Positions 7,661-57,947 are shown, counted from the stretch's first letter. The stretch: 64,000 nucleotides of DNA from a virus (IMGVR_UViG_3300033068_001655), one strand, 5' to 3'. Numbers and translations are program-made. Notes: generated by a model not told the origin, from the letters alone.

Positions 7661-9256
7661 ATGAAATACTTAAAATTATTTGAAGGCTTTGAATCTAATA
7701 GGATTAGTGCCATACTATCATTCTTAAATAAAAAACTAAATAAAACTAATGCTGATAGATTCTTAGGGGATCTAATTAGATTGGCAAAGAAATATGATTT
7801 TCCATTAAGTACGTTAACTGATAACGAAATACAATACCTATCTGTAAATAAAGCTTTAGAAATCAAGGAAGAAGCTATGAATCCTAGTGGTATTTATGCC
7901 ATCAAGTATTGGTTTTCATTAGAAAAAGGTTATTTATGTCAAACTGGGGTTGGTAATCAAGAAATGAATTTTGGTAACTATGAACAGTTTATGGAAACTG
8001 GTAAATCGGATTTGACTAAAGGGCATTTAGATTATTTGGTAGATACTTATAATTTAAAAGGTTTAATTGTACCTTGTAGTTTTGATACGTTGCAAAGTGG
8101 TGATAAGGTAGTAATGGCTTGTAATGATACCTTTTATGGTAATGCTAATGAATTAGCGTACGGTGTAATATATGTTGATAATAATGACGGTGAATATTAC
8201 TTTTTTAATAATAAATTTGAGGGTACAACACCTGATGATGGATATACAGAACCAGGATATAGATACTCTTGGATTTTAGGATCTCAAGAGTATGAAAGTG
8301 AGGATCACTGTATGATTCATAAAATTATTGAGGATGACAAACCATTAAGATTTAATGGTATTTCTAAGGAAGAAGAGACTTTAAAATCTGTTTGGGATTT
8401 CAATCTACCATTGAAAAATAATCCACCAATTGAATTAGAAACATGGCAAGGTAAATATAATGAAACTTTAAAGCTTGTAAAAGAAGCTAACTTTGCAATT
8501 GTTCTTTATTTAGATTATGTATTGGTTAAAGATATGAGTAAAGAAGAAATTTCTAAAGAAAGAAAGGATAGTAGAAAAGATGCCTTATTCTTAATGAAAA
8601 ATGAAGATATTAAAAAGGCAAATATTAAAAGATACTTAGAAAAACTATTTGATAAACTAGGAATTGAGAAGGATAAACAGGAATTGAAAAATCTTAACAG
8701 TGTAATTAAATCAACTATTCTTGGTGAGTATTTTCTTATTACAAGTTATAATTCTGGCTTCATGGATAGATTGACTAATTTTACAACATCTTTATATAGA
8801 GTTATGTCAAAAAATGATGAGGAATACTACTTCAATGTATTACTTGAAGTTTTTAAAAAAATTAAGAAATATCGTTTAGAAGTATCATCGAAATATATTA
8901 CTAATATTAAATATATTAAATCTTTAAAATCTGATAACAGTGATAAGGCGAATGAGGTACTTAAAATAGTTCTTAGAATAGGTAAAACTATTTCTGATTA
9001 TTTTAGTAATAAGGAGATTACTACAATTGAAGATCTTAAATATACTCAAATGAAATTAAAAATGATTTCTGGGTTATATCAAGATGATATTTTTTATTTG
9101 TCAGGATTTATGTCAAGTTTATTAGATTCAATGGATACTGATACAGTTGAAATAGAAAAAAGTTTAAAAAGAACTTATTCTGATAAAGAATATGGAAAGG
9201 ATATTAAAAAATTAGAAAAGTTAGAAAGAATTATCAATAATGATTATTTAAAATAA
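7661..9256 (+). CDS. Hypothetical 531-aa protein with CTS-like N-terminus (MKYLKLFEGFE)
   Basis: Long ORF. TAATATATAGTT motif 3 nt upstream of the ATG. Confidence 0.5.
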   Translation: MKYLKLFEGFESNRISAILSFLNKKLNKTNADRFLGDLIRLAKKYDFPLSTLTDNEIQYLSVNKALEIKEEAMNPSGIYAIKYWFSLEKGYLCQTGVGNQEMNFGNYEQFMETGKSDLTKGHLDYLVDTYNLKGLIVPCSFDTLQSGDKVVMACNDTFYGNANELAYGVIYVDNNDGEYYFFNNKFEGTTPDDGYTEPGYRYSWILGSQEYESEDHCMIHKIIEDDKPLRFNGISKEEETLKSVWDFNLPLKNNPPIELETWQGKYNETLKLVKEANFAIVLYLDYVLVKDMSKEEISKERKDSRKDALFLMKNEDIKKANIKRYLEKLFDKLGIEKDKQELKNLNSVIKSTILGEYFLITSYNSGFMDRLTNFTTSLYRVMSKNDEEYYFNVLLEVFKKIKKYRLEVSSKYITNIKYIKSLKSDNSDKANEVLKIVLRIGKTISDYFSNKEITTIEDLKYTQMKLKMISGLYQDDIFYLSGFMSSLLDSMDTDTVEIEKSLKRTYSDKEYGKDIKKLEKLERIINNDYLK

Positions 9257-9601
9257 TAAGTATAAATCATTTTGTCTAGCTTCTAATTCTGTTAAAAGAA
9301 AAACACATTCTCTTCTTAAATCTTTAAGTTTTAAAAAATCTGAGGTATTACTTACTTTAGATAATTGATCGTTAAGATTATCAATCTCAATTTTTATCAT
9401 ATCTATCATTAAGCTCATTTCTTTGATTATATCACCTTTTAAATCAAGTACTAAGGATTTAAAATAAGGATTTATCATAATAATTCCTTTATAATCACTA
9501 GAAGTAAAATTCTTCATGATTCTTTTAAGTATTTCTATGACTTCATCCTCAGTACCTGAAAGGTGTAGTTTATCGAGATATTCTAATAAGCTTAACTTCA
9601 T
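9248..9601 (-). CDS. Hypothetical protein
   Basis: 117-aa ORF. Confidence 0.4.
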   Translation of the reverse strand: MKLSLLEYLDKLHLSGTEDEVIEILKRIMKNFTSSDYKGIIMINPYFKSLVLDLKGDIIKEMSLMIDMIKIEIDNLNDQLSKVSNTSDFLKLKDLRRECVFLLTELEARQNDLYLLF

Positions 9602-10452
9602 ATCATCTTTTTACATTTATATATAAGACTGCTACTAAATCCTTTTTTTAATATATCCTTGATTGAGTAACCATCTTTTAACAAACCTTTTACCAATTCT
9701 TTTTTATCAGATTTTAATAACTTATCTTCTATTCTATCCCACTTTCTAGACATTATTGGTAGATTTAAACGAACACATTGTTCTTTAATATCTTTAAGTA
9801 TATTATACTTTGATATAAAGATAATTGAACAATTTTCATATATTTTTGCATCTTTAGTTTCCTTAGTTAAATGAGTATAGAAATATTCTAATATAGAAGA
9901 CCAAGATTCATGACATTTAATTATCAATCTACCTTTTTTATTAATAGAGCCATCACCGTCAATAAACCCTATTATTAAACTAAATAATTGTTCATCATTT
10001 AACCAATTAGGTAGTATAGGAGGTATTTTAGTTTTATTGGATTTCCAATTAAAATCTCTAGTAATTTTATCTATAGTTATTTTATCAGATAAAACTACAC
10101 TAATTCTACTTTCATTTTCATATACTTTTACATGACCCAAATGATCTGTTATTTTTAATATATGTAATCTATCCTTAGTTGATATATTTATTTGTATTCT
10201 TTTATCTTTTGTAATATGTCCATCTGCTAACATAAACCCCAACCAATAACAAGAAATATTATCATATTCTATTAATTTGGAATATTTAAAACTATTATTG
10301 TTTTCATTAAAACTTCTTTTTATTTTAAAAAAATGTGCTTTCTTTTGTATATAGTTCCAAGATAATCCTAAATCAGTAATAATAGTTTCTTTACTTGAAG
10401 ATGGATAATTTTCTTTTAAATAGTTCTCTAACTTTGTTTTAGTGTGTCTCAT
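9598..10452 (-). CDS. LAGLIDADG homing endonuclease (double-motif, free-standing)
   Basis: YWLGFMLADGHI and LIIGFIDGDGSI motifs. TAATATATAGT motif ~20 nt upstream of the ATG. Confidence 0.8.
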   Translation of the reverse strand: MRHTKTKLENYLKENYPSSSKETIITDLGLSWNYIQKKAHFFKIKRSFNENNNSFKYSKLIEYDNISCYWLGFMLADGHITKDKRIQINISTKDRLHILKITDHLGHVKVYENESRISVVLSDKITIDKITRDFNWKSNKTKIPPILPNWLNDEQLFSLIIGFIDGDGSINKKGRLIIKCHESWSSILEYFYTHLTKETKDAKIYENCSIIFISKYNILKDIKEQCVRLNLPIMSRKWDRIEDKLLKSDKKELVKGLLKDGYSIKDILKKGFSSSLIYKCKKMI

Positions 10453-10470
10453 ATTACATATAGTTTTTTA

Positions 10471-10914
10471 CTATATATTAATATTTAGATTTCTCTTTAG
10501 ATCTAATTTAATATCTCTTGCTTTAATATCTTCTTTTTTATCCCAAGTTTTCTTACCTTTAGCAACTGCTATTTTTATTTTTATACGGTTATGTTTAATA
10601 AACATACCCAGTGGAATTGCGGTCGTACCTTTATCTTCCAATTTTCTTTTGATTCGAGTAATTTCTTTTTTATTTAAAAGAAGTTTCTTATCACGATTTT
10701 CTTCGTGTTTATCTAAAGTGTGTGCTGACTTATAAGGAGCGACTTTTAGATTTTTAATCCAAACTTCATTATCCTTTATATAAATGAAAGCATCCACCAG
10801 AGTCACATTACCCATTCTAACTGACTTTACTTCACTACCAACCAATACAATACCACAATCAATCTCTTCTAAAAAGATATAATCGTATCTGGCTCTTCTA
10901 TTTAATGCTATCAT
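10471..10914 (-). CDS. smpB: SsrA-binding protein SmpB (trans-translation factor)
   Basis: ALNRRARYDY...GSEVKSVRMGNV...KKLLLNKKEI...GMFIKHNRIKIKIAVAKGKKTWDKKEDIKARD aligns along its full length to bacterial SmpB. Confidence 0.85.
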   Translation of the reverse strand: MIALNRRARYDYIFLEEIDCGIVLVGSEVKSVRMGNVTLVDAFIYIKDNEVWIKNLKVAPYKSAHTLDKHEENRDKKLLLNKKEITRIKRKLEDKGTTAIPLGMFIKHNRIKIKIAVAKGKKTWDKKEDIKARDIKLDLKRNLNINI

Positions 10915-11452
10915 ATTTTATAATTTTATAAGAATCTCCTTCCCTGTTCTTAATTACTTTTATTATATTATCTTTGTTTTGTTGAGTTATAATCACTGCT
11001 AAATCTGAGGAATATAGTGTAGATGAACCACCCATAAATGAACCATTACCAGTTGTATTTAGTGGACAAGTAAGTATCAACTTAATATCACAAATTGATT
11101 TATTATTTCTATTGTCTCTTAAATAATCTCTTACATCATAAATAGTTGACTGTATTGCTCTAGAAGCTTCCATATCACGATTAGTGAAGTTATTTCTTTC
11201 TCTAAATAAAGTTCTTATATCATTTATATCTAATACAATGTAATCAATTTTATGTTCGTTATTTAAAACTTGGTCAATCTTCATATCTCTAAAAATAGAC
11301 TTCATAGAAAAAGATGAACTTAAATCTATTTTCTTGGTTGAACCAAGATTAGAAATAATTTCATCTTTAACTCTTTCATCTAAAAATCGATAACCAATTA
11401 AGGTTGTCTCATTTTTACTAATTAGATCATATAAATAATCTATAGTTTCCAT
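10898..11452 (-). CDS. Hypothetical protein (possible degenerate RecA/KaiC-like fold)
   Basis: 184 aa; no Walker A motif seen. Confidence 0.35.
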   Translation of the reverse strand: METIDYLYDLISKNETTLIGYRFLDERVKDEIISNLGSTKKIDLSSSFSMKSIFRDMKIDQVLNNEHKIDYIVLDINDIRTLFRERNNFTNRDMEASRAIQSTIYDVRDYLRDNRNNKSICDIKLILTCPLNTTGNGSFMGGSSTLYSSDLAVIITQQNKDNIIKVIKNREGDSYKIIKYDSIK

Positions 11453-11769: not shown

Positions 11770-11816
11770 AATTTATTATTTAAAGTTTTTTATTATATTA
11801 TTTTTTTGTTAAAAGT

Positions 11817-13055: not shown

Positions 13056-13195
13056 TATTTTTTCTTTTTGATGTTTAAAACTTGTGCTACGTGGTCATTT
13101 ATTACTCTAACAGGAGTATCAGAAGAAGTCTGATTTACATCCTTTACTTCTTCTGATTGTTCTTCTGTTGTTTTTGTTTCTTTGTCTTTATTCAT
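13055..13195 (-). CDS. Small 46-aa ORF translationally coupled on both sides (TAATG overlaps)
   Basis: MNKDKETKTTEEQSEEVKDVNQTSSDTPVRVINDHVAQVLNIKKKK. Its ATG overlaps the sigma-factor stop and its stop overlaps the next ATG. Not in the track (under 60 aa). Confidence 0.35.
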   Translation of the reverse strand: MNKDKETKTTEEQSEEVKDVNQTSSDTPVRVINDHVAQVLNIKKKK

Positions 13196-13797
13196 TAGTC
13201 TAAATACATTTCATCTATTTGATCAAACTCTTTCTTAGATTGTTCCATCAAAATCTGACGACCGTTTCTAATTTGAGATTTTATTGTAGATAAATTTTTT
13301 CCTAACTTATCCGCAATGTCTTTATATTGCATTCTTTCAATCTCTCTCATTATAATAACTGTCTTATACGGTTCTTTTAATTCAGAGATATGTTTTTTCA
13401 TTACGTCTGCTTTTTGTGAGAAAACATCATAAACTGCTTCATTACTTTCTGTTTCTTGTATAAAGTCTTTTAAAGTAGTTCCTTCATCATCAAACTCAAT
13501 GTCTAATGATATGTTTCTGTTTTCAAGTTTTTTATCTTGTAAAGATAAGTTTTTTGCGATTGTGAATAACCACGTTGAAAATTGTGATTTTTCTTTTTGA
13601 TACATTTCTATTTTTTCCAGTGCTATCATAAATGAGTCTGTTGAAATGTCTTCAGCTTTTTGTACATCATTACAAATTCTTGATGTAAAGTAGATTAGTT
13701 TTGGGTAATACTTTTGATAAAGTGTTGCGAAATCTTTACCAGTTCTTTCTTTAAAAATTTTCTCTTGTTCAGAGAATGGGGTTGTGCTTAATTCCAT
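13195..13797 (-). CDS. RNA polymerase sigma factor, sigma-70 family (ECF-like, regions 2 and 4)
   Basis: Region 2 FATLYQKYYPKLIYFTSR...AEDISTDSFMIALEKI...FSTWLFTIAKN and region 4 YKTVIIMREIERMQYKDIADKLGKNLSTIKSQIRNGRQIL. Confidence 0.8.
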   Translation of the reverse strand: MELSTTPFSEQEKIFKERTGKDFATLYQKYYPKLIYFTSRICNDVQKAEDISTDSFMIALEKIEMYQKEKSQFSTWLFTIAKNLSLQDKKLENRNISLDIEFDDEGTTLKDFIQETESNEAVYDVFSQKADVMKKHISELKEPYKTVIIMREIERMQYKDIADKLGKNLSTIKSQIRNGRQILMEQSKKEFDQIDEMYLD

Positions 13798-15457: not shown

Positions 15458-15458
15458 T

Positions 15459-18028: not shown

Positions 18029-18101
18029 AACACAAATATACAAAATAAAAGTTAAAGAATAAACAAAATTTAATATATACTAAAAAATCAAAAATCATAA
18101 A

Positions 18102-26548: not shown

Positions 26549-27637
26549 ATGACAAACGAAATTTTAAACCCAGAATTAGGAAACCCAGATTTCGAGCTTT
26601 TATTCGAGGAAAAAAGCTATAGAAAGGGTAAAAATATGAGTGATAAAGATCTTGATGCTCTTTATAGCTCTATTAAATTAGAAGTGCCACAAGTAGGTAA
26701 TGTGGTTAGATCTAAATACCAAGGTATTATGGCAAATCAGTTTGTATTTAGCGTTGACGGATTCAAAGATGATGTTAGAGTTGAAGACAAACCAGGTGAA
26801 GCTAAATACCTTAAAAATTGCAACACTGGAGATGAGGTTGATGTTTTAATTACCGAGATAAATCACGGTCAATATTTCATCAAAGGAAGTATAGCTTCTT
26901 TATATGAGTCAAGAGCTCACGAAAACCTTAAATCTCTAGAGGAAGGAGAATCAGTAACTGCCTACGTTAGAGCACTTAACCCAGCTGGTTATGATGTTGA
27001 GATTACAAATGGAGGAGTAACTCTTCCAGGATTTATGCCAAATACCTTAGCAGGTATCAACAAACTTTACGACCCAACTTCAATTGTTGGAGATACGTTC
27101 CAAGTTATGATTGAGTCTTTCTCAGAACATGAAGGAACTTATATCGTAAGTCGTAGAAAATACTTACAAACTTTAATTCCAGAAGAAATTAGTAATCTTG
27201 AGTTTAATGTGTTGTATAGTGGTAGAGTAACTGGAACAACACCATTTGGTATCTTTGTCGAGTTCAACGAGTGTTTAACTGGTATGATTCACAAAGCAAA
27301 TGTGACTGAAGAGTGGCAAAACAGAATCTCCGAAATTAAACCAGGACAAGAGATTGAGTTCTTTATTAAAGAAATCATTAAGGAGAAAATTATCCTTACT
27401 CAAGTTCTGAGAGAAACACTTTGGGACACCATCAAAAACGGTCAATTGATCGATGGTAAAGTAAAAGATGTTAAGCAATTTGGAGCTTTAGTTATCTTAG
27501 ATGATGAAACAGTTGGATTAGTCCACACATCAGAAATGGAGAAACTTGGTAGAAAGCTTACATCTGGACAGGACATCAAAGTAAAAGTTTTATCAGTTGA
27601 TAGACAAAGTCGTAAAATTTTTCTTACAATTGGATAA
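26549..27637 (+). CDS. Multi-S1-domain RNA-binding protein (ribosomal protein S1-like)
   Basis: Three S1 repeats recognised, including C-terminal GKVKDVKQFGALVILDDETVGLVHTSEM...GQDIKVKVLSVDRQSRKIFLT. Confidence 0.7.
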   Translation: MTNEILNPELGNPDFELLFEEKSYRKGKNMSDKDLDALYSSIKLEVPQVGNVVRSKYQGIMANQFVFSVDGFKDDVRVEDKPGEAKYLKNCNTGDEVDVLITEINHGQYFIKGSIASLYESRAHENLKSLEEGESVTAYVRALNPAGYDVEITNGGVTLPGFMPNTLAGINKLYDPTSIVGDTFQVMIESFSEHEGTYIVSRRKYLQTLIPEEISNLEFNVLYSGRVTGTTPFGIFVEFNECLTGMIHKANVTEEWQNRISEIKPGQEIEFFIKEIIKEKIILTQVLRETLWDTIKNGQLIDGKVKDVKQFGALVILDDETVGLVHTSEMEKLGRKLTSGQDIKVKVLSVDRQSRKIFLTIG

Positions 27638-27701: not shown

Positions 27702-27715
27702 TTAATATATACTTT

Positions 27716-28180
27716 ATGATTAAAAATTGGGAAACTTTTTTAGAAGCGGCTAGGTTAAGTGATATTGCAAATCTAAAGGGATTTGATTCTAAGACAAAAT
27801 CAGATTGGGGATTTGATAAGAAATTTGATTTAAGTGGTAATTTAGTTAAAATTATTTCTACCAATAAAAGAATAGGTGGTAGAAAACTTCAACTTAGAAT
27901 AACTTATTTTGATGATACTCACCATAGTATTGCTGAGAGGATAAGAGATAGAACTAATTTAAAAAGTGTTGAAGAATTTAATGTGATTTTAAAAGAAACT
28001 TTAAATAAATTAGTCGAGGAAAAAGAAGAATTTATTTTTGATAAAAAGTATGCGGTTTATTTAAAAGAGTATCGTTTTGTTATTGTATTTACATTAGATT
28101 ATGATTTAAAAGAGCTTAATATTTATACAATTTTACCAGGTTCTAACGTAAATAATGTTGGAAAAATTTTTGTATATTAG
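27716..28180 (+). CDS. Hypothetical protein
   Basis: 154-aa ORF; TAATATATACTTT directly upstream of the ATG. Confidence 0.45.
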   Translation: MIKNWETFLEAARLSDIANLKGFDSKTKSDWGFDKKFDLSGNLVKIISTNKRIGGRKLQLRITYFDDTHHSIAERIRDRTNLKSVEEFNVILKETLNKLVEEKEEFIFDKKYAVYLKEYRFVIVFTLDYDLKELNIYTILPGSNVNNVGKIFVY

Positions 28181-28466: not shown

Positions 28467-28847
28467 TATAAATTCCCATTGTTTAACCTCTGATAATTTC
28501 CATTCACGTTTTTCTTTACCTAACGTTTTTCTAAATGAATTCACATATTCAACCCAAAGATATTTATCTTCATCATCATTGTATCGATATGGTGGTCTAT
28601 TACTTTCTAAATAAGCAGTATATTTATCACCATTATTTAATGTAATTTTACAAGGTATAACAAGTGGTGGTAATTTTAAATTCTCTATTTCAACACCAGC
28701 AAGTTGTGCAATGTTTAGAACTTTTTTATGAAAGCTTAGTGTATTATTTTTCATTAAGTCAACTATTCTACCAACAGTTCCACTTGAATCCGAAGATTCA
28801 AATGTTTTAAATCCTTCTATTTTCTTTTTCATTAGTATGTATTCCAA
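28464..28847 (-). CDS. Hypothetical protein
   Basis: 127-aa ORF. Confidence 0.4.
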   Translation of the reverse strand: MEYILMKKKIEGFKTFESSDSSGTVGRIVDLMKNNTLSFHKKVLNIAQLAGVEIENLKLPPLVIPCKITLNNGDKYTAYLESNRPPYRYNDDEDKYLWVEYVNSFRKTLGKEKREWKLSEVKQWEFI

Positions 28848-29017
28848 TTTTTTATATGTATAACACCATTAGAGTCTATTGTAGAACCTTTATCCTCAAC
28901 CTCTTCATCTTCTTCTTCATCATCAAAAAAACCAGGTTTAAGTACATCATCAATTGTTTTGTCTGATAACTCAGGCATTGTTTCAACAAATTGTTCAAAA
29001 AGTTTTAAATATCTCAC
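28832..29017 (-). CDS. Small acidic protein with CTS-like N-terminus (MRYLKLFEQFVE)
   Basis: 61 aa with a poly-acidic stretch DDEEEDEEVED. Confidence 0.4.
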   Translation of the reverse strand: MRYLKLFEQFVETMPELSDKTIDDVLKPGFFDDEEEDEEVEDKGSTIDSNGVIHIKNWNTY

Positions 29018-29035
29018 TTAGTATATATTATTTTT

Positions 29036-30226
29036 TTACCAATCATTATCTTGATCATCATCCCATTCTTCATCACCATCATCTTGTGACCATATAATTC
29101 TTTGTGAACCTGGGAAAGGTTTATTACTAATCTGACCAGTTTCTGGGTTCCAGTTATTCATATTATCTACTGATGGATATTGATCAAATGTACCAGGATT
29201 TATATGTGTAGTAAATGTTTGTCCATAACTCATTTGTATATATCCTTTTGAATTACCATATTCAATAAATACATTTCTATCAGAATCTTTACTTGTATAG
29301 ATGGTGTCCATTAGTTGTCTTCCATCATCTAATGTCCAAAGAAGAGCTCTACCAATTATTTTATCATCATAATTTTCAGATCTTAACATCAATAATTTTA
29401 CAGTTTGTGGATTATCAATATAAATTTGTAACCATCTAAGATTACCAACTGCTTGACAAGAACCACCTAAAGTTCCTTGATGTGGAAATTCATAGTTTCT
29501 TCTGTTATACCAGAATCCTAAGTCGTCACCTTCAACGATCTCAAATCTTGAGAACACATCATTCATAATTGCTAAAACTGCTCTAAATTCGTTTACAAAC
29601 GTTTCTATCTTAGCATCTGTAACTGGATAGTTATAAGCTTGTAATAAAACTCTAACTGCTCTACCTGTTCTTACTTCTTGACGACTTCTAGTGAAGACAA
29701 CTTTTTGTTTATCTTCTACAATAGGTCTTAGTTTTTCAATGTTATATACACCTTCACCAGTTGGAAACTTAACATAACACCAAGTTTTACCAGTTTTCTC
29801 AGATGTTACTCTACTAATAACTTCTCCAGCATCATTATTATTTGGATGGAAAACTTCTTCTGTTGTAGGTGTAAATCCTAATCTTGCAAAAATAGCACCG
29901 TTAGTTCTAAGGTTATTAGTAAGCCAACCACCTCTACGACCAACATATTTAACAAATTCTCTAGTATCACCAAGTATTTCTTGTGCAACTCTATCTGGAG
30001 TGAAAGTCAAGATATTATCATTGTCAATTTTTACATCAAAAAAGTTAGAAACAACTTCTAAATCCTTATTTTCAATCTCTAATAATTTCTGAGCAATTTC
30101 GTTGTCAGGTAATTTACTAAGTGCTCTTTTAAACTTAGCAGAATAAACTACATTAGATTCTAATAAAAGTTGTTCTAATATAAGTTTTTCTACAATAAAT
30201 TCTTCATACTTGTTTAAGCTTCTCAT
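29036..30226 (-). CDS. Hypothetical 396-aa protein, paralog of the tRNA-island gene 1566-2756; CTS-like N-terminus
   Basis: Shared conserved block with 1566-2756. N-terminal MRSLNKYEEFIVEKLILE. Confidence 0.55.
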   Translation of the reverse strand: MRSLNKYEEFIVEKLILEQLLLESNVVYSAKFKRALSKLPDNEIAQKLLEIENKDLEVVSNFFDVKIDNDNILTFTPDRVAQEILGDTREFVKYVGRRGGWLTNNLRTNGAIFARLGFTPTTEEVFHPNNNDAGEVISRVTSEKTGKTWCYVKFPTGEGVYNIEKLRPIVEDKQKVVFTRSRQEVRTGRAVRVLLQAYNYPVTDAKIETFVNEFRAVLAIMNDVFSRFEIVEGDDLGFWYNRRNYEFPHQGTLGGSCQAVGNLRWLQIYIDNPQTVKLLMLRSENYDDKIIGRALLWTLDDGRQLMDTIYTSKDSDRNVFIEYGNSKGYIQMSYGQTFTTHINPGTFDQYPSVDNMNNWNPETGQISNKPFPGSQRIIWSQDDGDEEWDDDQDNDW

Positions 30227-30973
30227 TTAATATGTTAATATTTTTAATACAACATCCTCAACAAATTCTTTCATATCTGCTGGATCAATTGTTGCAACCG
30301 TGTCTTTAGTAGAGTGACAATGAAATAACATTGAATAATCTAAATAAGTTTCATCATCCCACTTAACATTTGTTTTACCTTCTAAAACTGGAGGTAATGG
30401 ATTTATTACTACTGAATCAATTCCATTTCTTCTAAATGTCACTGAGTCGTTAAAAGGTGTTCTAACTATTGGACAATCAAATAATGTCTTTATATGATTT
30501 GTTAAAGGTCCTGGGTAATCACCAATGAAAAAGTGTCTACCACCTTTACCGCTTAATTCTAAATTAAGTACCCATTCTATATCACCAAACTTACCTTCAT
30601 TGATTTGTTCAGATGCTCTATTAGAACCAATTCCACCCACTTCTTCACCATCTAATAAGATTACATTCATCGTTGGTAATAGTTTCTTAATCATTATTGC
30701 ATTGATTACTGATGCACTATTATCATTTGCATTATCTATATTAGGGTTATTTATATCGTGATGTGCAACAACCATTCTATTTGAAGTTCCTTTTAAGATA
30801 ATGTTATATCCGGTTACATCTTTAGTAAAGAATTTATCTAATTCATACTTAATTCCCTCTGATTCTAGTAATTCCATTAAAAATTGAACTCTAGGTGGTG
30901 GAGTTTGTGAATTATTATCATAAATAGTTCCTTCGTTTCTAACTTTACAAAAGTCATATATTTTATTGTACAT
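30227..30973 (-). CDS. Putative M28/M42-family metallopeptidase-like protein
   Basis: VVAHHDI...DNSASV...LDGEEVGGIGS...HCHS matches the spacing of the M28 zinc-ligand signature H-x-D / D / EE / D / H. Confidence 0.45.
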   Translation of the reverse strand: MYNKIYDFCKVRNEGTIYDNNSQTPPPRVQFLMELLESEGIKYELDKFFTKDVTGYNIILKGTSNRMVVAHHDINNPNIDNANDNSASVINAIMIKKLLPTMNVILLDGEEVGGIGSNRASEQINEGKFGDIEWVLNLELSGKGGRHFFIGDYPGPLTNHIKTLFDCPIVRTPFNDSVTFRRNGIDSVVINPLPPVLEGKTNVKWDDETYLDYSMLFHCHSTKDTVATIDPADMKEFVEDVVLKILTY

Positions 30974-31000
30974 AAATGTATATATTAAATTTTTAAAATA

Positions 31001-35322: not shown

Positions 35323-36432
35323 ATGATAATAAATTTAAAAAGTCAAACAGACCTTTCGGGGTTTTATGTAGTTTATGAAGGTTCAACAAACTTAGAAAAA
35401 CCAGGATGGTATGGAATATCACACTTAATGGAACATCTTGTTTGTAAATCATTTGATCACTTACAAGAAGATTTTGATAGAGATGGTATTGATTGGAATG
35501 CTTATACTTCTTCTAATGAAATCGTATTCTATTTAACTGGATTGGATGAAAAAGTAAACAAATATAAGAATCAATTTGTAGAATTACTAACTTCTTTTAA
35601 TGTAACTAAAGAAGAATTTGAAAATGAAAGAAAAATTGTTCTTGAAGAGTATATGGATTGTTTCAACGATCAGACTCAATCACACATGTTAAACCTTTCA
35701 AGAAAGTTATTCAATGATTATGATCCAATTGGGTTGAAAAAAGATTTAGAGAATTTGAAATTTATGGATTGTCTTAACTTTTTTGAATTACAATATGCTA
35801 AACCAACTAAAATTATCAATGTTTCTAAAAACAAGGATTATAAAAATAAATCAATTGAATTTCAAGAAAGAAAAATTGTAACTAATTTGAGTTTTGGTAA
35901 TCACGATGTTGATTTGGAATTAAATAATGATTTTAAAGATAAAACCTCTATTGTAATTTTATCTCCAGTGATTGAAGAAGATTTTGCTTACGTACACTTT
36001 ATAAATGCAATGTTATCATTAGGTTTAAAATCACCTTTATATCAAGAGATTAGAGAAAAGAAAGGATTAGTTTATTACGTTCATTGTTATCAATCAAGAG
36101 TAAATGATAAAGGATTGAATTCTATTTCGACTTTAACTTCAAATAGAAACTTTAATGAGGTTGTTGACGCTGTTAAAAAAGTGATTACAAACCCAGATAA
36201 GTTTTTAACTAAAGAAAGATTTAACATTGTTAAAGATTACTATGAGGTAAGAAAACAAAAAGACGAAATCAATAGATATGGTGCAGTAAATCAATGGATA
36301 AACCCTGCAGGTTGGTCTGTGTATGACATATTAGAAGAGGTTACTTTGAAAAAGATTAGAGAAGTTTATGATAAGTATTATGACTTTGATAAGTTTTATA
36401 TTTCATCAGACAAGAAAGAATTTAAAAAATAA
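35323..36432 (+). CDS. M16-family (insulinase/pitrilysin-like) zinc peptidase
   Basis: Inverted zinc motif HLMEH near the N-terminus (ISHLMEHLVCKS); 369 aa. Confidence 0.55.
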   Translation: MIINLKSQTDLSGFYVVYEGSTNLEKPGWYGISHLMEHLVCKSFDHLQEDFDRDGIDWNAYTSSNEIVFYLTGLDEKVNKYKNQFVELLTSFNVTKEEFENERKIVLEEYMDCFNDQTQSHMLNLSRKLFNDYDPIGLKKDLENLKFMDCLNFFELQYAKPTKIINVSKNKDYKNKSIEFQERKIVTNLSFGNHDVDLELNNDFKDKTSIVILSPVIEEDFAYVHFINAMLSLGLKSPLYQEIREKKGLVYYVHCYQSRVNDKGLNSISTLTSNRNFNEVVDAVKKVITNPDKFLTKERFNIVKDYYEVRKQKDEINRYGAVNQWINPAGWSVYDILEEVTLKKIREVYDKYYDFDKFYISSDKKEFKK

Positions 36433-37056: not shown

Positions 37057-37461
37057 TTAATTATTTTTATAAAAATCGACTTTATATCGATTTGCAATTT
37101 CTTCTGCTTTATTTAAGAAAGGTTCAGTTACAAAAAATACCCATTTGAATCCAGGATAGTTTTTATTTATATCAATTACTGACATGAAACTACCAAATCT
37201 TTCTGTATCACCTACTTTTTCTTTTGTACCAATTAGTTCTCCATTTTTATCGACAAACTTTGGTATACTAGCAAAACCTTGTTTCCACATTAGATCATCC
37301 ATTTCTTTACGAATTTTATCTCTTGTTTGCCACCCAGTTTTTATGAAATCAACTACTACACTTGGGTAGATAATTTTTTCTTCACCTTTACTATTATTAA
37401 ATCTTATCGGTGCAACGATAAAATCATCATCTAAACTTTCATTAAATTTCTTTATACGCAT
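37057..37461 (-). CDS. Hypothetical protein (CTS-like N-terminus MRIKKFNESLDD)
   Basis: 134-aa ORF. Confidence 0.4.
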   Translation of the reverse strand: MRIKKFNESLDDDFIVAPIRFNNSKGEEKIIYPSVVVDFIKTGWQTRDKIRKEMDDLMWKQGFASIPKFVDKNGELIGTKEKVGDTERFGSFMSVIDINKNYPGFKWVFFVTEPFLNKAEEIANRYKVDFYKNN

Positions 37462-37676
37462 AAACTATATATTAAAAATCTTTTTTATACTTTCCTTTCT
37501 AAAGTGTTTTCTATGCCATTTTGACATAATTTCCATGTGTGTTTTCACATATGTACTTCCCATTCTTCTTGGTTTCCCGACTAAAAACATTTTTTATAAT
37601 TTTTTTTCTTTTTCTAGGTCGCATTGTTGAATTTATAGCGTTGTAGAAGTTTTCTAAAAGATCGTCACCTTTCATA

Positions 37677-45842: not shown

Positions 45843-45870
45843 GTAGTATTGAAAAAGTAATATATAGTTT

Positions 45871-48800
45871 ATGCCATTTATAGATACAAACATAGCACCA
45901 TCTTGGACATATGATGCCAATTTAGGAGGAATTAAAAGAATAGTTCTTAATGATACAAATATTAAATTTATTAAGAATACTGTCAATTCTACTTATAATT
46001 TTACTCAATTAAAAAACTATCAATTTGTTACAGGTATTACAGGTTCTGTTGCATTAGGAACGTTCTCTGTTAGATTTAGACCACCATTTACTACAAATAC
46101 TATTAATTTAAGAAGTAGTGTTTTAACTAATGGGGGAGTAGAATTCTATACATACAATAGTCCTAATAATACTCTAGCATCCAATACACTATTATCATAT
46201 GGCTCTGATAATTCTTTTACACAGTCAGTTATAAAATCTACTAAAGTAAATGAACTTAGTTTTCTTATAAATGGATTTAGAGAGTTTAGTTATTTAGATA
46301 GAGATATTGCAACATCATCTCAACCTAGTGGTTGGTTTTATGGTATTGCACCTGGTGATTTTGATCCTTCCTATAATTTCTTTTTATCTTCATCTACGAG
46401 TTCTATATCACCATCTTACTCTACATTGGGTTCAGGTTTAAACACAGTATCAAATAAGAACTTTATAGCAAAATATATTGAATATGATACATTTAACTTA
46501 GAATATAGTTTTTACACATCAACACCAGTGAATATGAGTATGTATTTACTGACTTTAGATAATTTAGGTACACCAGCAAATTGGGCATCACATATAGTAG
46601 CAACATTTTCAACAACTGGGACTTATAGTAATTTAGGATTAGTGGGTACTAACTATGATGGTACTAAAAATTATTTAGTTTTCTCTTGTGAAGCAGTTTT
46701 TAACACAGGTGTAAATTATACTTTAAATAGTAATGGTGATTCAGTACTAACTGATATTTACTCAAAATTATCTAATATAGAAATCTATGGTACTTATCAT
46801 CCAACTTCTAATAATAGATTGTCATTGACTGATACTACTACAAGTCCAATAGGTCTAAGTATTTCTAATGCTGCTTATTCATATACTTTATTAAACAATG
46901 GTGGAACATTCTCAATTCCATCTAGAATTGGTAACGGCGCATTTAGATCGGGTATATGGGAAAATGGAGTTTGGAATAATGGATGGAGAGATGATACCAA
47001 TACAAAGGATTTTGACGATGTTTATATTTCAGTTTTAACTGCATCTGATGTTTCTTGGAAAATAGAGATTAGAGGGGCAACCACTGCAATTGATGGATTT
47101 GCGACTGGTTCAAATGTTTCAATAGGAAATATCGTTGCAATTGATATAAATGATAATAGAAAACTTTTAAAAGATTATTATCAAATCGAATCACTTGGAG
47201 TTGATGCAGGTGATCCACAAAATGGTGTTGCACCGTATGGTTGGATTAGAGTTAATTTAGATACTTCATTTCCTTATAGAAGAATTGAAAAAGATTCACC
47301 TAATCATAAAATCAAAGTAACTAAGAATATTTGGTTATCAGGTGGTTTCTTTAATGGATATTTCTCTGGTGTTTGGAATAATGGTTTGTTTAAAGGCTAT
47401 CCATTATTGACAGAGATGTTTGATTCACATTGGATTGATGGATTATTTGATGGTGGACATTTTAATTCTACCTATTCTAATAACTATGATTTTATAGGAA
47501 TTGGTCCTAAAGTTGCTTGTAGTAATAATTTTATGGACTTAATTTTTGCATCATCATCCACAACACCTTTTTTACAAGGAGATTATATATTCCTTACCTT
47601 ATATGATATTGGTGAAGTATTTTTAACAGGTTCAGATCTTTATTCAGGGGTATGTCAAATTGTTGATGTTAAAGTAGATACGGAACCTTTAATGTCTGAT
47701 AATAACGGAGGGTTTATTCCAAATCCAAACTTTATGTATCAAACAATAACTATTAATAAAAGATCAATTGGTTTACCAAAATATTTTGATACTAATGCAC
47801 CCGCTGGTTATGCATATAGATATACTGCAACTTCTGTTATTCAAAATTTTAAATTTTATGATAATAATAGATCTAAAATAAAGTCATCTGATAGTCAATT
47901 ATCCAATGCAGTATTTAGTTTTAACTCTTGGATAGATGTAAATTATGATGATACAAGATCAGTAACATTAGGAAGAGATTTTAGAGTATATGAACCACTG
48001 ACAAAAAAGTCTGTTAGTAGAAATAATTTATTTGGTTATCCTACTTATGATATTTTATCAAGTGCTTCTCGTTTCAGAGATAGTAACTCACTAGATACTA
48101 AATTATATAAATTGGGGACAAAATATAAGGTGTTTAATGATTTTATTGGAGATTACTCAAAATTCAATGAACCATTTAGTGATTTAGACTTTGGTAGTTT
48201 TATCAGTGCAGGATGGACATATTCGTATGCAAACACATCTGACTTTAAAATTAAAAGAACTGAAAGTTTAATAACATTAAATGATAGTCAATCAACTGCA
48301 CTTTTAAACTCTGGTGTTACTGGTGACGAATTATATATCACTGCAAGTAATACTGGAATTATTTTAAATAATAGTAATGTAAATATAGAGAAATCTAGAT
48401 ATTCAGTAGTAGAGTTTGATGTAGTAACATATAGTGTTCCCAATACAATTTATACTTATGATAATCCAGATATTTATCAAAAAAGAAGTATTAGTAATGT
48501 AGGACTTTCTTTTAGTGAAACAACTAATACTGTAGATGCTTACATAACAAGTAGTTATAACTTAGTTGGTTCTCCAACATTCTCAGTAGGTGACATTGTA
48601 GTAATGGTTGATATATATGGTGATGTACCAGGAACTACAATTAATTTAAAGGCACCTAATGGTAAAATTGTGAATCTTAAAAAAGTAGGTACTGGTTTAG
48701 GTAGTAGAATGAATCAAACTAGATTTAGTTTTAGAGATATTTATGATAGATTTTCTTATATTACTACTCCATATAGTTTAAATAACACAACAATAGCATA

Positions 48801-52456: not shown

Positions 52457-52663
52457 TTATTTAGATTCATCTATTAGTTCATTTATTTTTTCTTGTAGAA
52501 TTGGAAAATCATAATTTAAAACTATATCTGATATTTCTTCTGAAAAATCATCCTCAAATACTAAGCAATCTGTGTTTTCAATAAATTGAATTAAGCTTGG
52601 TAATCCTTTTTGATATACGTTTAAAATTTTTTCCTTACTTAAATAACGTTTATTACTTCCCAT
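52457..52663 (-). CDS. Hypothetical small protein
   Basis: 68-aa ORF. Confidence 0.35.
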   Translation of the reverse strand: MGSNKRYLSKEKILNVYQKGLPSLIQFIENTDCLVFEDDFSEEISDIVLNYDFPILQEKINELIDESK

Positions 52664-52809
52664 ATTTTTTCTAATTTATTTATTTTTTTAATTCTTCTAA
52701 GTTTTCTATACTCTATATTATTCATTCCTCTTGGACCTGGCCAGCCTTGTGGTCCGGTTACACCTATTGGACCAACCAAGCCAGTTGGTCCAGATATACT
52801 ATTATTCAT
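52639..52809 (-). CDS. Small ORF (56 aa) with a collagen-like (G-X-Y)7 run
   Basis: MNNSISGPTGLVGPIGVTGPQGWPGPRGMNNIEY... Hand-translated; overlaps the previous ORF by ~23 nt in another frame; not in the track. Confidence 0.3.
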   Translation of the reverse strand: MNNSISGPTGLVGPIGVTGPQGWPGPRGMNNIEYRKLRRIKKINKLEKIWEVINVI

Positions 52810-54653: not shown

Positions 54654-54941
54654 TTATTCTTCATTTTTTAAATATTCAGATACATCTACTGGATCTAACC
54701 TTGTTATCATTTCATCGTAAGGTACAACTTTGTTCATTAGTTCTAAAACTAAATTGTTATATCCAAACCATTCTTCTATTTCTCCGATTATCTCTTCAAG
54801 TTTTTCGTCAATAGTTAAAGTGACAAAATTTTCTTTATAGAAAAAAGTGGCATCGTAATACTCATCTTCATAATTCAATGAAATAAGTACTAAAACACCA
54901 TCTTCAAATTTTCCTAAATATTCAATTATATCAAAGGTCAT
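54654..54941 (-). CDS. Hypothetical small protein
   Basis: 95-aa ORF. Confidence 0.35.
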   Translation of the reverse strand: MTFDIIEYLGKFEDGVLVLISLNYEDEYYDATFFYKENFVTLTIDEKLEEIIGEIEEWFGYNNLVLELMNKVVPYDEMITRLDPVDVSEYLKNEE

Positions 54942-55237
54942 TATCCTAATATACTCACAATTTTTTCTTCTCTTTCTTCTTGAGTCACATGTTTTAAGAA
55001 GTCACCTTTAATTAAAGTATTCATAAGTGATTGTGCTTCTTTTTTATTATTCAACGAAACAGCAGTAACAAGATCTCTATAGTATTTATGTATGTTTTGT
55101 CTTTCATCTTCATTTATTAAAAATGATACCTTTTTAAGGTCTAAGTAATAATCTTCTATATTCATAATTCTATTATAATTTTTGTCCAACAACAAATTCA
55201 ATTTTTTTGAATTTATCATCAGTATCGGTAAAAACAA
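54941..55237 (-). CDS. Hypothetical small protein
   Basis: 98-aa ORF. Confidence 0.35.
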   Translation of the reverse strand: MFLPILMINSKKLNLLLDKNYNRIMNIEDYYLDLKKVSFLINEDERQNIHKYYRDLVTAVSLNNKKEAQSLMNTLIKGDFLKHVTQEEREEKIVSILG

Positions 55238-55445
55238 TTTGTATTTTTTCTACATCAACAAACTCTTTTGCTTCTCCAGAAAATTCATTTACCATTACAT
55301 CTTTTTTGTAGATTACATCAATTCCAGGCTCTTCTCCTAAAAATCTACGCATATCTTCTTTAATTTGTGAGATTTTCCAATCATCATTCACAAAATCAAT
55401 CTTTGAAATATATTCTCTAATTGAAAATTCTTTAAGTGAACTCAT
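55173..55445 (-). CDS. Hypothetical small protein
   Basis: 90-aa ORF that overlaps its neighbour; true start uncertain. Confidence 0.3.
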   Translation of the reverse strand: MSSLKEFSIREYISKIDFVNDDWKISQIKEDMRRFLGEEPGIDVIYKKDVMVNEFSGEAKEFVDVEKIQIVFTDTDDKFKKIEFVVGQKL

Positions 55446-55477
55446 ATATTCTTTTTTATTTTATATCTTATTTAACC

Positions 55478-55810
55478 TTAAAAGTTTGGATTATCTAGGT
55501 AATAAGTATTATGTTCTGTAATGAACTCGAAGTTATCGTGTAAAGTCTTACAATAACCTTTAAAAGCATGTACATCTTCTTCGTTTAGTTTAAACCATTC
55601 ACCTCTTACTTTTTTAGTTTTAAAAATTCGGTGTAAACTACTTTCTATTTTAGTCCCCCATTTTGATTTAAACGAGTCAACTAAGTAAAGGTCCGCGGCA
55701 TTTCCAGTTCTAAATTCTTTCAGCCTTGTTTCAATTTTTCTTTTAGTGAAGCCTATCTTATGTAGTTTTTCACCATCTATATCAGCACAAATTAAGTAAA
55801 TGTTCGTCAT
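55478..55810 (-). CDS. T5orf172-domain (GIY-YIG-like) protein
   Basis: IYLICADIDGEKLHKIGFTKRKIETRLKEF...GEWFKL matches the T5orf172/MUG113 pattern. Confidence 0.5.
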   Translation of the reverse strand: MTNIYLICADIDGEKLHKIGFTKRKIETRLKEFRTGNAADLYLVDSFKSKWGTKIESSLHRIFKTKKVRGEWFKLNEEDVHAFKGYCKTLHDNFEFITEHNTYYLDNPNF

Positions 55811-55821
55811 AGAAGTATATA

Positions 55822-56244
55822 TTACTTCTTCTTGACTCTCTTTTTTACTTTTTTAATAGGTTTAACGACTGGTTTTTTATAGATCTCAACTAAAGTATCA
55901 CCATAATTGACTTTTTCATAGTAATATTTAACAGATACAAAATTATTTTTTCTGTCTATTTCTAATCTACCGGTTACTTTAATATTTCTTATATCTACTA
56001 TATAAGGTCCATTTTTAAGTTTTTTATAGTTTTTTAGAATAAAGTCACAAACCTCTGCTCTTATAAGAGGTCTTGATTTATAGTTAGAGTAGACAATCAT
56101 TGAATCACCAATTCTACTTACGTATTCCATACCATCATAACCATAGTTATAGTATTCTATCTTTTGTTGTGAATAGGTAAAAGTGGTAATAAATAATAGT
56201 AATAATATTTTAATTTTTTCTAACATAGTATCAATCATTTTCAA
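55822..56244 (-). CDS. Hypothetical secreted/membrane-anchored protein
   Basis: N-terminal hydrophobic signal-like segment ILLLLFITTFTYSQQ and a basic C-terminal tail. Confidence 0.4.
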   Translation of the reverse strand: MKMIDTMLEKIKILLLLFITTFTYSQQKIEYYNYGYDGMEYVSRIGDSMIVYSNYKSRPLIRAEVCDFILKNYKKLKNGPYIVDIRNIKVTGRLEIDRKNNFVSVKYYYEKVNYGDTLVEIYKKPVVKPIKKVKKRVKKK

Positions 56245-56381
56245 ATAAATAAACTCCAGGGCTAATATACTTATTCTTTTCGGGAAGACCTAATAATCTT
56301 CTTAGTTTTTTTAAACGAAGATACTTTCGAGTTCTATCTTTTTCATATAAATTTACACCAGGTGGTGTAAATCGATTCATT

Positions 56382-56693
56382 CTATTCATTGACCTTAAAT
56401 ATGTTATTGATTTTTTTCTTTCTTGTTATGTGTTTTGTATCACCATATTGATAATCAACATAATTTAATATACCTTTAGGTGCTGACATTGGTTTAACTG
56501 ATACTAAATCTAAACCAATTGTTTGTGCAGCAATTTTCATTGCAATTGGAAACATATTAAGGTTTGATTGTGTATTTGTTTGTGATTGTTGTAGACCGGC
56601 ATATTGAGACATCCAATCTGATTTAGAACCGGTTAGTCCTATATTACCGATTATATTTTTCCATTTATCCTCGGTTTTTTTTCTTTGATCCAT
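56382..56693 (-). CDS. Hypothetical protein
   Basis: 103-aa ORF. Confidence 0.35.
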   Translation of the reverse strand: MDQRKKTEDKWKNIIGNIGLTGSKSDWMSQYAGLQQSQTNTQSNLNMFPIAMKIAAQTIGLDLVSVKPMSAPKGILNYVDYQYGDTKHITRKKKINNIFKVNE

Positions 56694-56709
56694 AAAAAAA
56701 CTTTTATTT

Positions 56710-56994
56710 TTATAGAAAAGTTTTGTATATTTGTTTGATTTCTTTTTCCAACTCTTTTTGTTGTTGTTCGTTTAGTTTTTTAAACTCTTTTTCATACCAG
56801 GAAATCAATTGATAGATAACCATTTCTTCTGCTTCACCATTACTAACAGATTTATAGTTGTCTTCATCTGACCACTCTTTAATTTCATCTGCTAACATTT
56901 CTGATACAATTTCTTCTGTAAAGTGTTCTTTAATCTTTACAATAGCATGATGTATATCTGAATTATTTTCGTTATATCTTTTTAAGTATTTCAT
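56710..56994 (-). CDS. Hypothetical protein (CTS-like N-terminus MKYLKRYNE)
   Basis: 94-aa ORF. Confidence 0.4.
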   Translation of the reverse strand: MKYLKRYNENNSDIHHAIVKIKEHFTEEIVSEMLADEIKEWSDEDNYKSVSNGEAEEMVIYQLISWYEKEFKKLNEQQQKELEKEIKQIYKTFL

Positions 56995-57947
56995 TATTTC
57001 AATTTAATCTGTATGTATAACCAAAATGAGTGTGGTTTAACACTTATAAGGACTTTTTCACCCCATTTCTTAGTGATGATCCAATTATTAAAGTTTATCT
57101 TAATGTTTGATAATTCTCCTTCATCTAATTTACCATTATCCCATTTACCAACACCATAATAAGCAAATGTTATTACTTTGTCAGTAATAGTTGGTTTCAT
57201 TTCTTTTTCAAAATAACCTGGTTTAAACTCTTTCATATCATTCTTAATCTTACCTAGCATAAGTATATCTGAATATGATAAGTTTACAATTTCCTTTTTC
57301 AAAGAAGTTGCTGATTTAGACTCAATAGTTACTAACCATCTTACTATTGAAGGAGTTAGTTTAAATTGTCCAATAGGATTTAATTTATCATATGCAATTC
57401 CATATTCAAATGTACCATCACATTTAATACCAAAATATAATGCACAATCATTTTTACCATAATCAATCATTTCAATATATCTAGTCAATGATTTGAATCT
57501 ACTAAATACTGATTTTACATCAGTTGTAGATAAGTCTGTGTAATGCCAAAGTAATAAGAAATGTGAAGGACATTTTTCACTGTTTGGTCCTTTTTCTTTT
57601 TGACCTAATGCAGTTAAAACTTTTAAGAATGAATTAAAAATAGATTTTCCAGCAACTGTAATATCAGTTGATTCGTTTATCTCTGTTGATACAATAACTT
57701 CGGCATCTTTATCTTCTATACCATTTTGAAGGTAAGTATCAATTTGTGCTTTGATGTCATCTTGTTCAGATTTTTCTAATGTATTGATTGCATTAGATAA
57801 TCTAATATCCGGTGAGACATCTTCTAAGAAACGGTTTACTATGTTTTTAACATATTCATCATCATACAAAGACTCAACCCACTCTCCAAGTGAATTGAAG
57901 TCTTGTAATTCAGATTCTTTAATAAACTCTAAATACTTTTTTATCAT
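56994..57947 (-). CDS. Hypothetical protein (MIKKYLEFIKESE N-terminus)
   Basis: 317-aa ORF; TAATATATACTC directly upstream of the ATG. Confidence 0.45.
   Translation of the reverse strand: MIKKYLEFIKESELQDFNSLGEWVESLYDDEYVKNIVNRFLEDVSPDIRLSNAINTLEKSEQDDIKAQIDTYLQNGIEDKDAEVIVSTEINESTDITVAGKSIFNSFLKVLTALGQKEKGPNSEKCPSHFLLLWHYTDLSTTDVKSVFSRFKSLTRYIEMIDYGKNDCALYFGIKCDGTFEYGIAYDKLNPIGQFKLTPSIVRWLVTIESKSATSLKKEIVNLSYSDILMLGKIKNDMKEFKPGYFEKEMKPTITDKVITFAYYGVGKWDNGKLDEGELSNIKINFNNWIITKKWGEKVLISVKPHSFWLYIQIKLK

Follow-up and report, generated by a model that had tools for sequence, protein, structure and literature searches.

Why should proteins that have nothing else in common begin with almost the same ten residues? 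The question is raised by a 64,000-nucleotide stretch of viral DNA (IMGVR_UViG_3300033068_001655; called here the window, meaning the whole of the DNA that was analysed), in which a sequence-only reading had picked out six open reading frames (ORFs) with a shared start, M-[KR]-Y-L-K-[LR]-[FY]-[EN]-x-F, and had likened it to the capsid targeting sequence (CTS) of phage T4. The internal proteins of T4 are diverse and their targeting sequence alone is conserved (PMC3012670); these sequences, of 10-20 residues, are removed by the protease gp21 and are enough to load foreign proteins (PMC5694885). Our analyses showed that the motif is a modular N-terminal leader of about ten residues, specific to an environmental sub-lineage of the Mahaphage-clade huge phages of Bacteroidetes. 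On whether it is also a greatly expanded capsid-targeting signal of the T4 type, the evidence left us evenly divided. The leader suggests the packaging, and perhaps the injection, of about a hundred different proteins, and packaging can be put forward as a supported hypothesis, so that the capsid-targeting interpretation from which we started is, overall, partly supported.

Leader genes of the window

The carriers in the window are given below, with scores in bits from profile models of two leader classes, A and B, and with the position of a TATATA box, a promoter-like sequence, where there is one.

7661..9256, + strand: leader gene, 531 aa, class A, MKYLKLFEGF (codons 7661-7690); class A 23.3 bits; TATATA box 7648-7656, 4 nt before the ATG
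28832..29017, - strand: small leader gene, 61 aa, GTG start, leader M/VRYLKLFEQFVE (codons 28982-29017); 19.2 bits class A, 11.1 bits class B; TATATA box 29021-29029
29036..30226, - strand: leader gene, 396 aa, class B, MRSLNKYEEFIVEK (codons 30185-30226); class B 12.4 bits
56710..56994, - strand: leader gene, 94 aa, class A variant, MKYLKRYNEN (codons 56965-56994); class A 20.3 bits
56994..57947, - strand: leader gene, 317 aa, class B, MIKKYLEFIKESE (codons 57909-57947); class B 19.2 bits; TATATA box 57951-57959
37057..37461, - strand: borderline leader gene, 134 aa, MRIKKFNESLDD; below both thresholds (10.1 bits A, 7.1 bits B); TATATA box 37465-37473
27716..28180, + strand: additional near-threshold candidate, 154 aa, MIKNWETFLEAARL; 9.0 bits class B against a threshold of 9.4; TATATA box 27704-27712

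All six of the N-termini first picked out were found at their positions and five had statistical support, the borderline case being 37057, whose start is similar to the MKHLKRFNES-type leaders of the relative LR745206, introduced below; the candidate at 27716 had not been among the six. The literal pattern held in full for 7661 and 28832 and through residue 8 for 56710, and the other three proved to be a related variant. The GTG start of ORF 28832 implies that its first residue would be the initiator Met, and the same 61-aa ORF (28832-29017) was also predicted by an independent gene call on a Logan contig. Of the 67 N-termini in the window, 5 passed the models, where about 0.1 would be expected. 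That the carriers are otherwise unrelated was borne out by comparing them beyond residue 14, which revealed no significant mutual similarity, and Pfam and PHROG scans of the window carriers returned no family for any of them. A superficial look-alike, ORF 4018 (start MFKKIKGFENYSINEDG), was not counted as a carrier, since by eye we take its start to be that of a NUMOD4-type homing endonuclease.

Extent of the leader in related huge phages

Huge phages, with genomes of 400-735 kb, are uncultured and the majority of their genes are ORFans. The window has a GC content of 26-34% (in 4-kb windows). A megablast of positions 18000-42000 against a phage collection gave a single match, the gene for an M16 peptidase, with 76.5% nucleotide identity to LR745206. 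Protein comparison was more informative, showing that the window is colinear with LR745206 at 290-336 kb, in inverted order, 35 of its 67 ORFs having a homolog there at 30-80% identity. LR745206 is the complete genome, of 634,780 bp and with 924 ORFs called, of an uncultured phage; it is one of the four largest that Al-Shayeb et al. 2020 curated, falls within the Mahaphage clade and has a predicted Bacteroidetes host (PMC7162821). Among the IMG/VR loci fetched, the most window-like was L059, on a 476-kb contig, with two adjacent proteins 82% and 65% identical to those of the window.

Leaders were sorted by pattern into class A (MK[YH][LI]K.[FY][EN].[FYS]), class B (M(I)KK[YFW]..F[ILV].[ED]) and class C (MKYLK.YK[IL]FES), and profile models were calibrated to a false-positive rate of about 0.1% or less, with 2,828 internal Met-started windows of LR745206 as controls, the class A threshold of 12.5 bits being passed by one of these control windows and the class B threshold of 9.4 bits exceeded by two. 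By model, class A was found at 67 of the 924 N-termini of LR745206 and class B in 30 genes (by pattern, 16 N-terminal and 4 internal, against 0.16 expected); class C occurred 12 times at an N-terminus and never internally. The union of the three comes to 107 of the 924 genes (11.6%). The class A pattern also starts 192 of the 1,524 ORFs in about 1 Mb of IMG/VR loci.

Orthologs in the window and LR745206 retain the leader at 31-66% identity. That of 7661, LR_333761, starts MRYISLYEAFES (31% identity), that of 56710, LR_291084, starts MKYLRKYNESN (35%), and that of 56994, LR_290120, starts MIIKKYIKFIKEN. The 29036 family showed how the classes are connected: among the 120 listed of its 171 homologs, the core [YF]..F[ILV].E is retained while the first residues vary, and starts such as MKHLNKYGNFIVEK, MIYKYTEFILEK, MKIVLEYKEFLSEK and MKYLKLFESFILES have class A and class B interchanging. 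The leader classes are one element, starts of different classes occurring within this single orthologous family. An AlphaFold2 model of the 29036 protein (71 sequences; mean pLDDT 83.9) placed the leader, in front of a confidently modelled body, in a low-confidence helix of residues 4-19, with residues 1-5 and 13-22 at pLDDT below 50. A fold search with the model gave only weak GNAT- and SH3-like matches (best E 0.011, none at or below 0.001), and the protein was accordingly given no function.

The 224 leader ORFs of the IMG/VR loci fell into 142 families, unrelated and mostly ORFan. A Pfam scan of 149 leader-pattern ORFs matched 30 families, each of the 25 listed being represented by one protein, with domains that include lysozyme, M15 peptidase, AAA_33/zeta kinase, ATP-grasp, NUDIX, SET and GNAT; this was a census of domains, which were not assigned to individual members. 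A ClpP match in the same census was discarded as a false leader admitted by the loose pattern. In proteins with a recognisable fold, direct inspection of the sequences showed the leader to be an add-on before the first strand, e.g., MKYLKLFERFKNKPK-FILLVGPPASGKS. Information content is high over residues 2-8 and falls to about 1.2-1.3 bits at residues 9 and 10; from residue 11, where a mildly acidic, polar stretch follows, it is at background. In its form the leader is what a CTS is, a peptide conserved over a short length at the very start of proteins that are otherwise unrelated, with its information confined to residues 1-10.

Composition and the level of selection

K, Y, L, F, E and N all belong to AT-rich codon families, and the genome has a GC content of 29%. 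A search of IMG/VR with back-translated MKYLKLFE found more than 120 loci, nearly all at the first ATG of real ORFs that then continue into unrelated sequence, versus a single locus for the codon permutation MKLYKFLE. In 596 Gb of bacterial and archaeal genomes the MKYLKLFE pattern gave 47 loci, mostly chance ORFs of 8-20 residues or internal ones. Synonymous codons within the leader vary (TAT 67 times and TAC 51 times; six Leu codons), and therefore selection is on the protein; codon usage within it is close to that of the rest of the genes. Position 10, which lay outside the search pattern, was F, Y or W in 90 of 118 sequences.

It had been stated at the outset that an equal frequency of the motif in other AT-rich genomes would refute the idea, and no such frequency was seen in those compared. 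Neither Flavobacterium phage immuto nor Tenacibaculum phage pT24 has the leader, nor was it present in 50-kb chunks of Pelagibacter phage HTVC008M and of Lak-A1 (24.7% GC), and 0 of 263 N-termini of AT-rich control phages passed the models. No cultured leader-bearing relative was found; immuto, pT24 and HTVC008M share homologs of some genes and lack the leader. It is present in a chunk of the 735-kb phage LR756501. Based on the permutation, cellular-genome, codon and AT-rich phage controls, the leader is best described as an element selected at the protein level and specific to viruses and to this lineage. Nor does it resemble a Sec or lipoprotein signal peptide, being amphipathic, with charges at K2, K5 and E8 and no run of hydrophobic residues; true signal-peptide-like starts, e.g., MKKILTFLFLVLLIPS, are found on other genes and are distinct from it.

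Likeness to the T4 signal and the head module of relatives

In the T4 record, IPII and IPIII start MKTYQEFIAEA... and IPI starts MKTFKEFTST.... The class B model, built from huge-phage leaders only, placed IPIII, IPII and IPI, in that order, at the top of 237 T4 ORF N-termini, a ranking that is partly circular and that nevertheless upholds the resemblance originally proposed. The T4-derived pattern [FYW].[EQ]F[ILV].E occurs twice in the 19,550 residues of the window, both times within the first 8 residues of a protein, and in LR745206 it occurs 11 times N-terminally, where 0.04 would be expected, and once internally. Relaxed to [FYW].[EQ][FY][ILV].E, this heptad was found 30 times in the LR745206 proteome: 15 within the first nine residues, 10 as repeats of a scaffold and 5 elsewhere. 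Nearly every leader has a Glu at positions 8-13 with hydrophobic-x before it, and a hydrophobic-x-E site is usually present.

The scaffold repeats belong to a T4-type head module. With T4 proteins from the T4 record as queries, phmmer found in LR745206 the large terminase subunit TerL (4e-50), tail sheath, tail tube, portal (5e-23) and major capsid protein, and Pfam supported two of these (Portal_T4 2.7e-57; Gp23 1.8e-26). Directly upstream of the capsid gene lies a gp21-type protease-scaffold fusion of 707 residues (LR745206 198546-200669, loci L174/L175; also L243 10001-12163), whose first ~190 residues align to T4 gp21, with GEFDHP for GELNHP and VSSRAAG for VSSRGLG; the GELNHP and VSSRG motifs presumably hold the catalytic His and Ser of gp21. 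In tblastn searches the protease had 31-38% identity (E 1e-13 to 1e-17) to proteins annotated as head maturation proteases in T4-like cyanophages, HTVC008M and PA5oct, and 44% to Lak phages. Its assignment as a gp21-type protease is based on these matches, the motifs and the gene order. The prohead protease gene that was to be located was thus found in the relatives.

The scaffold-like region that follows has 10-11 copies of a 14-residue repeat, NIAYSEY[LI]AENLDK, and then an acidic tract. Its YSEY[LI]AE shares the heptad with the leader and with the T4 signal YQEFIAE, and the repeats carry [LI]-A-E-N; in T4 itself, the scaffold gp22 starts MLKEQLIAEA, similar to MKTYQEFIAEA. The fusion is 690-740 residues long in 60 of the 62 IMG/VR loci with a recovered protease-scaffold ORF, the other two being shorter (519 and 573 aa), and the 735-kb phage has the same fusion with essentially the same repeat. 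The protease domain was found in 273 IMG/VR contigs, 7 of which also have MKYLKLFE matches, including the 476-kb contig carrying L059. A T4-type head, with gp20 portal, gp21 protease, scaffold and gp23, was recovered in the colinear LR745206 together with these 273 contigs. The N-terminal ~58 residues of the capsid protein are highly conserved, contain ...WMSEYAEFHSINENAY... and precede a variable stretch.

Within the structural module of LR745206, between TerL and portal, there are two leader genes (182319-183587; locus L174 32319-33587). One encodes a 195-aa protein with a long Q/P/E-rich tail (MKHIRTYENY...) and the other a 205-aa protein that, by eye only, resembles an isochorismatase; leader-bearing versions of the two are found again in many IMG/VR contigs.

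A promoter-like box

Of the 7 window carriers, 5 have the TATATA box, TAATATATA[CG], 3-4 nt ahead of the start codon, as do several other genes; there are 5 strict matches against 0.31 expected. A box at this distance implies leaderless or near-leaderless mRNAs. Other boxes in the window are as follows.

45859..45873, + strand: TAATATATA[CG]-N3-ATG (box 45859-45867) on a leader-free gene for a 1741-aa protein
55815-55823, - strand: further box
30978-30986, - strand: further box
18072-18080, + strand: further box
10471-10479, - strand: further box
4631-4639, - strand: further box

The capsid, protease-scaffold, portal, TerL, sheath and tail-tube genes of LR745206 have the box at 26-52 nt upstream, and because of this position ahead of head and tail genes it probably marks a promoter class that drives structural genes, presumably, by analogy with the late promoter of T4 (TATAAATA), a "late" class. 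It was found at most 40 nt upstream of 32 of 65 leader genes versus 214 of 859 others (p = 6e-5), being about 3-fold enriched at leader genes, and abutting the ATG (taken as 3-8 nt) in 18 of the 65 versus 97 of the 859, about a third of those 97 being, by eye, leader variants that the pattern had missed.

A possible route into the capsid

How might such a leader work if it were a targeting signal? It would form a short amphipathic helix with basic residues, an aromatic-x-x-Phe and usually a hydrophobic-x-Glu, a proposal that draws on the low-confidence AlphaFold2 prediction for one carrier and on the amphipathic pattern of the consensus. This helix may mimic the YSEY[LI]AE repeat of the scaffold domain fused to the gp21-type protease, to which its sequence is similar, so that a tagged protein would co-assemble with the scaffolding core as the gp23-type shell forms. 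The prohead protease would then clip the leader at hydrophobic-x-Glu, and the cargo would stay in the head with the DNA, ejectable into the next host. Core binding, cleavage, presence in the virion and injection of the leader proteins are all steps that we infer. The leader co-occurs both with the T4-type head module and with the box found upstream of head and tail genes. By a rough estimate, the capsid of a 634-kb phage could physically accommodate about 100 proteins at tens of copies each. The fullest version of this proposal, in which the largest phages load about 100 proteins (about 11% of the proteome, mostly ORFans together with enzymes such as lysozyme and a zeta-type kinase) by means of a T4-derived, scaffold-mimicking tag and so arrive with an injectable toolkit, we would advance tentatively, as something short of an even chance.

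Several observations weigh against capsid targeting. Everything past the existence of the motif is inferred, and no head gene (protease, scaffold or capsid) lies within the window, these having been found in the relatives only. The Pfam Peptidase_S77 match of the protease is below threshold (16.8 bits against a curated cut-off of 27; E 0.005), and phmmer of the protease domain against the Protein Data Bank (PDB) returned only noise. The T4 ranking is partly circular, as the definition of class B took the T4 signal into account. Three residues ahead of the conserved Glu, only about half of class A leaders have L or I, the others having T, K, R or F; a strict T4-type L/I-x-E cleavage would not fit them all. 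The promoter box is within 40 nt of only about half of the leader genes. Some 100 tagged proteins per genome, about 11% of genes, far exceed the few known in T4, and among the carriers are some resembling ordinary cytoplasmic enzymes: a zeta-like kinase (Pfam) and an ATP-grasp protein, with HAD-like and isochorismatase-like ones by eye only. Lastly, in several carriers, e.g., 7661, conserved sequence is continuous with the leader, with no linker.

Alternative explanations

Those objections give room to a different kind of tag. The leader could be a sorting or recognition signal for a process that has nothing to do with the capsid, read by an M16 or M28 peptidase, a chaperone (DnaJ), a degradation machine that times protein lifetime, or a docking site for assembly inside the cell. 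Selection at the protein level and modularity fit any tag for protein-protein docking, and the ordinary-looking enzymes among the carriers would be less surprising. The window and LR745206 share an M28 peptidase, DnaJ and a highly conserved M16 peptidase (78% amino acid and 76.5% nucleotide identity), and M16 enzymes of the mitochondrial processing peptidase type cleave amphipathic presequences from protein N-termini; either peptidase could be an alternative candidate for N-terminal processing of the leaders. Mitochondrial presequences are Arg-rich, however, whereas the leader is acidic and aromatic after its two lysines, and a sorting tag explains neither the specific match to the T4 signal nor a heptad otherwise almost confined to the prohead scaffold. 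We consider this explanation unlikely, though it is one to keep in mind. The M16 gene and the phage's own sigma factor, which matters for what follows, are these:

35323..36432, + strand: M16 (insulinase / mitochondrial processing peptidase family) peptidase; Pfam Peptidase_M16 6e-11, M16_C 3e-12; 78% amino acid identity to LR745206
13195..13797, - strand: phage sigma-70/ECF-type factor, candidate reader of phage promoters; Pfam Sigma70_r2 6e-13, r4_2 5e-11; 78% identical to the LR745206 ortholog

The frequency with which the box abuts leader genes, in the window and in LR745206 alike, raises the prospect that the conserved start is instead an expression device, i.e., an optimal set of the first ~10 codons, or a nascent peptide, for late mRNAs of a Bacteroidetes host that lack a Shine-Dalgarno (SD) sequence and are often leaderless, spread by recombination as a promoter-plus-start cassette whose peptide has no role once mature. 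The leader variants by eye among the 97 other abutting genes add to that association, the codons of the leader are the AT-richest ones, and the phage has its own S1-domain protein as well as the sigma factor. What the leader conserves, however, is amino acids and not nucleotides: substitutions are conservative (F/Y/W, L/I/V, K/R), synonymous sites vary with the codon usage of the genome, and the same codons in permuted order are found about 100 times less often. An ordinary 5' untranslated region precedes most leader genes, and many genes with an abutting box start with signal peptides or other sequences. Since leader and abutting box are separable across genes, the peptide is neither required for leaderless expression nor tied to it. 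DNA of Lak phage, even more AT-rich, is without the leader, and we regard an expression device as quite improbable. As for chance, the composition of the genome and a Met-Lys start would favour it, and hidden paralogy has some footing in clear paralogs among the carriers of single contigs, e.g., the MKYLKLFENFNQSEID family. Both are effectively refuted by the permutation control, by the contrast between internal Met windows and N-termini under the class A model, by the AT-rich control phages and by the spread of carriers over 142 unrelated families with different folds, and we give such an origin almost no credence.

Other genes of the window

Many genes of the window with a recognisable product are without the leader: tyrosyl-tRNA synthetase (TyrRS), YqeY, SmpB, thioredoxin, an NAD-dependent ligase, Sir2, DnaJ, a CoaE-like kinase, the sigma-70/ECF-type factor, the S1-domain protein, HNH and LAGLIDADG endonucleases, the M16 and M28 peptidases, an SPFH protein and a 1275-aa protein with glycosyltransferase and methyltransferase domains. 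The M16 gene is the best conserved at the nucleotide level between the window and LR745206, and the M28 peptidase gene (30227-30973, -), which has an abutting TATATA box, adjoins leader gene 29036. The sigma factor, S1-domain protein, TyrRS and SmpB (13195-13797, -; 26549-27637, +; 5746-6999, -; 10471-10914, -; in that order) are in keeping with descriptions of huge phages as having enlarged sets of translation and transcription genes.

At 1181-4014 (-) there is a 13-gene tRNA array (Ser, Arg, Phe x3, His x2, Lys x3, Trp x2). The one at 2969-3044 (-) has a predicted 8-nt anticodon loop ("gaag") and may be a frameshift-suppressor-like tRNA, a degenerate copy of a Phe tRNA or an ARAGORN artefact; Rfam added a further tRNA at 3371-3436. 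Between tRNA genes is a putative 431-aa ORF with a GTG start (1566-2861, -), in the most GC-rich part of the window and with no Pfam match. Homing-endonuclease-like genes, all on the - strand, lie at 277-1113, 4018-4428, 9598-10452 and 55478-55810, their types being HNH plus HTH, NUMOD4-like, LAGLIDADG and GIY-YIG-like; the last of them has endonuclease families among its PHROG matches and is GIY-YIG-like by eye. Collagen-like G-x-y repeats (…GPTGLVGPIGVTGPQGWPGPRG…) were seen in a short ORF at 52639-52809 (-), and a repetitive ORF with a GTG start (63217-63750, -) closes the window in a region rich in GGT/TCT repeats.

Significance and comparison with known systems

A literature search found neither the motif itself nor "huge phage" combined with "capsid targeting". 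One tag on about 11% of genes is a first handle on roughly 100 proteins per genome, and one that can be searched for in any metagenome. If capsid targeting is its function, the leader would define the injected proteome of the largest phages, likely a reservoir of anti-defence and host-takeover effectors, as in T4. The T4 loading mechanism would then be ancient and scalable, with a signal perhaps read by mimicry of the scaffold repeat, and the tag would be a ready-made cargo-loading handle for giant capsids. If its function is another, an N-terminal sorting tag of such breadth would still be unusual in a bacterial virus.

Among known systems, encapsulins offer an analogy only: their cargo-loading peptides are short terminal peptides that dock diverse cargo enzymes inside an HK97-fold shell, but they are usually C-terminal, have another consensus and bind the shell directly, with no protease or DNA packaging. 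Phages of the ϕKZ/SPN3US type are nearer, as giant phages that load many proteins (more than 50 head proteins and, for SPN3US, more than 40 MDa of ejection proteins; PMC7411985) and whose N-terminal propeptides are removed by a T4-related prohead protease (PMC5694885). Those propeptides, however, are mostly 80-160 residues or longer, are cleaved at S/A/G-x-E and have no shared short consensus (PMC5694885), whereas the conservation of the huge-phage leader stops at residue 10 and a single 10-residue consensus is common to more than 100 proteins.

The closest likeness is to the T4 CTS. Both are at the extreme N-terminus, about 10 residues long and on otherwise unrelated small proteins; both have the core K-x-aromatic-x-x-F-[ILV]-x-E, class A matching the T4 signal in its core only; and both occur in a lineage with a T4-type portal, capsid protein and gp21-type protease, in which the motif is scaffold-like. 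They differ in that the dominant MKYLKLFE.F is about 3 residues longer N-terminally and often without the [ILV]-x-E tail, that about 107 genes per genome carry it here against a handful in T4, and that the protease here is fused to a long repeat scaffold. The T4 signal has been proven by experiment (PMC5694885, PMC3012670), whereas the huge-phage leader is known from sequence alone. Relative to T4, the dominant consensus is distinct, the repeat scaffold is a fused one and the leader extends to about 11% of the proteome; in form and in context, it is T4-like.

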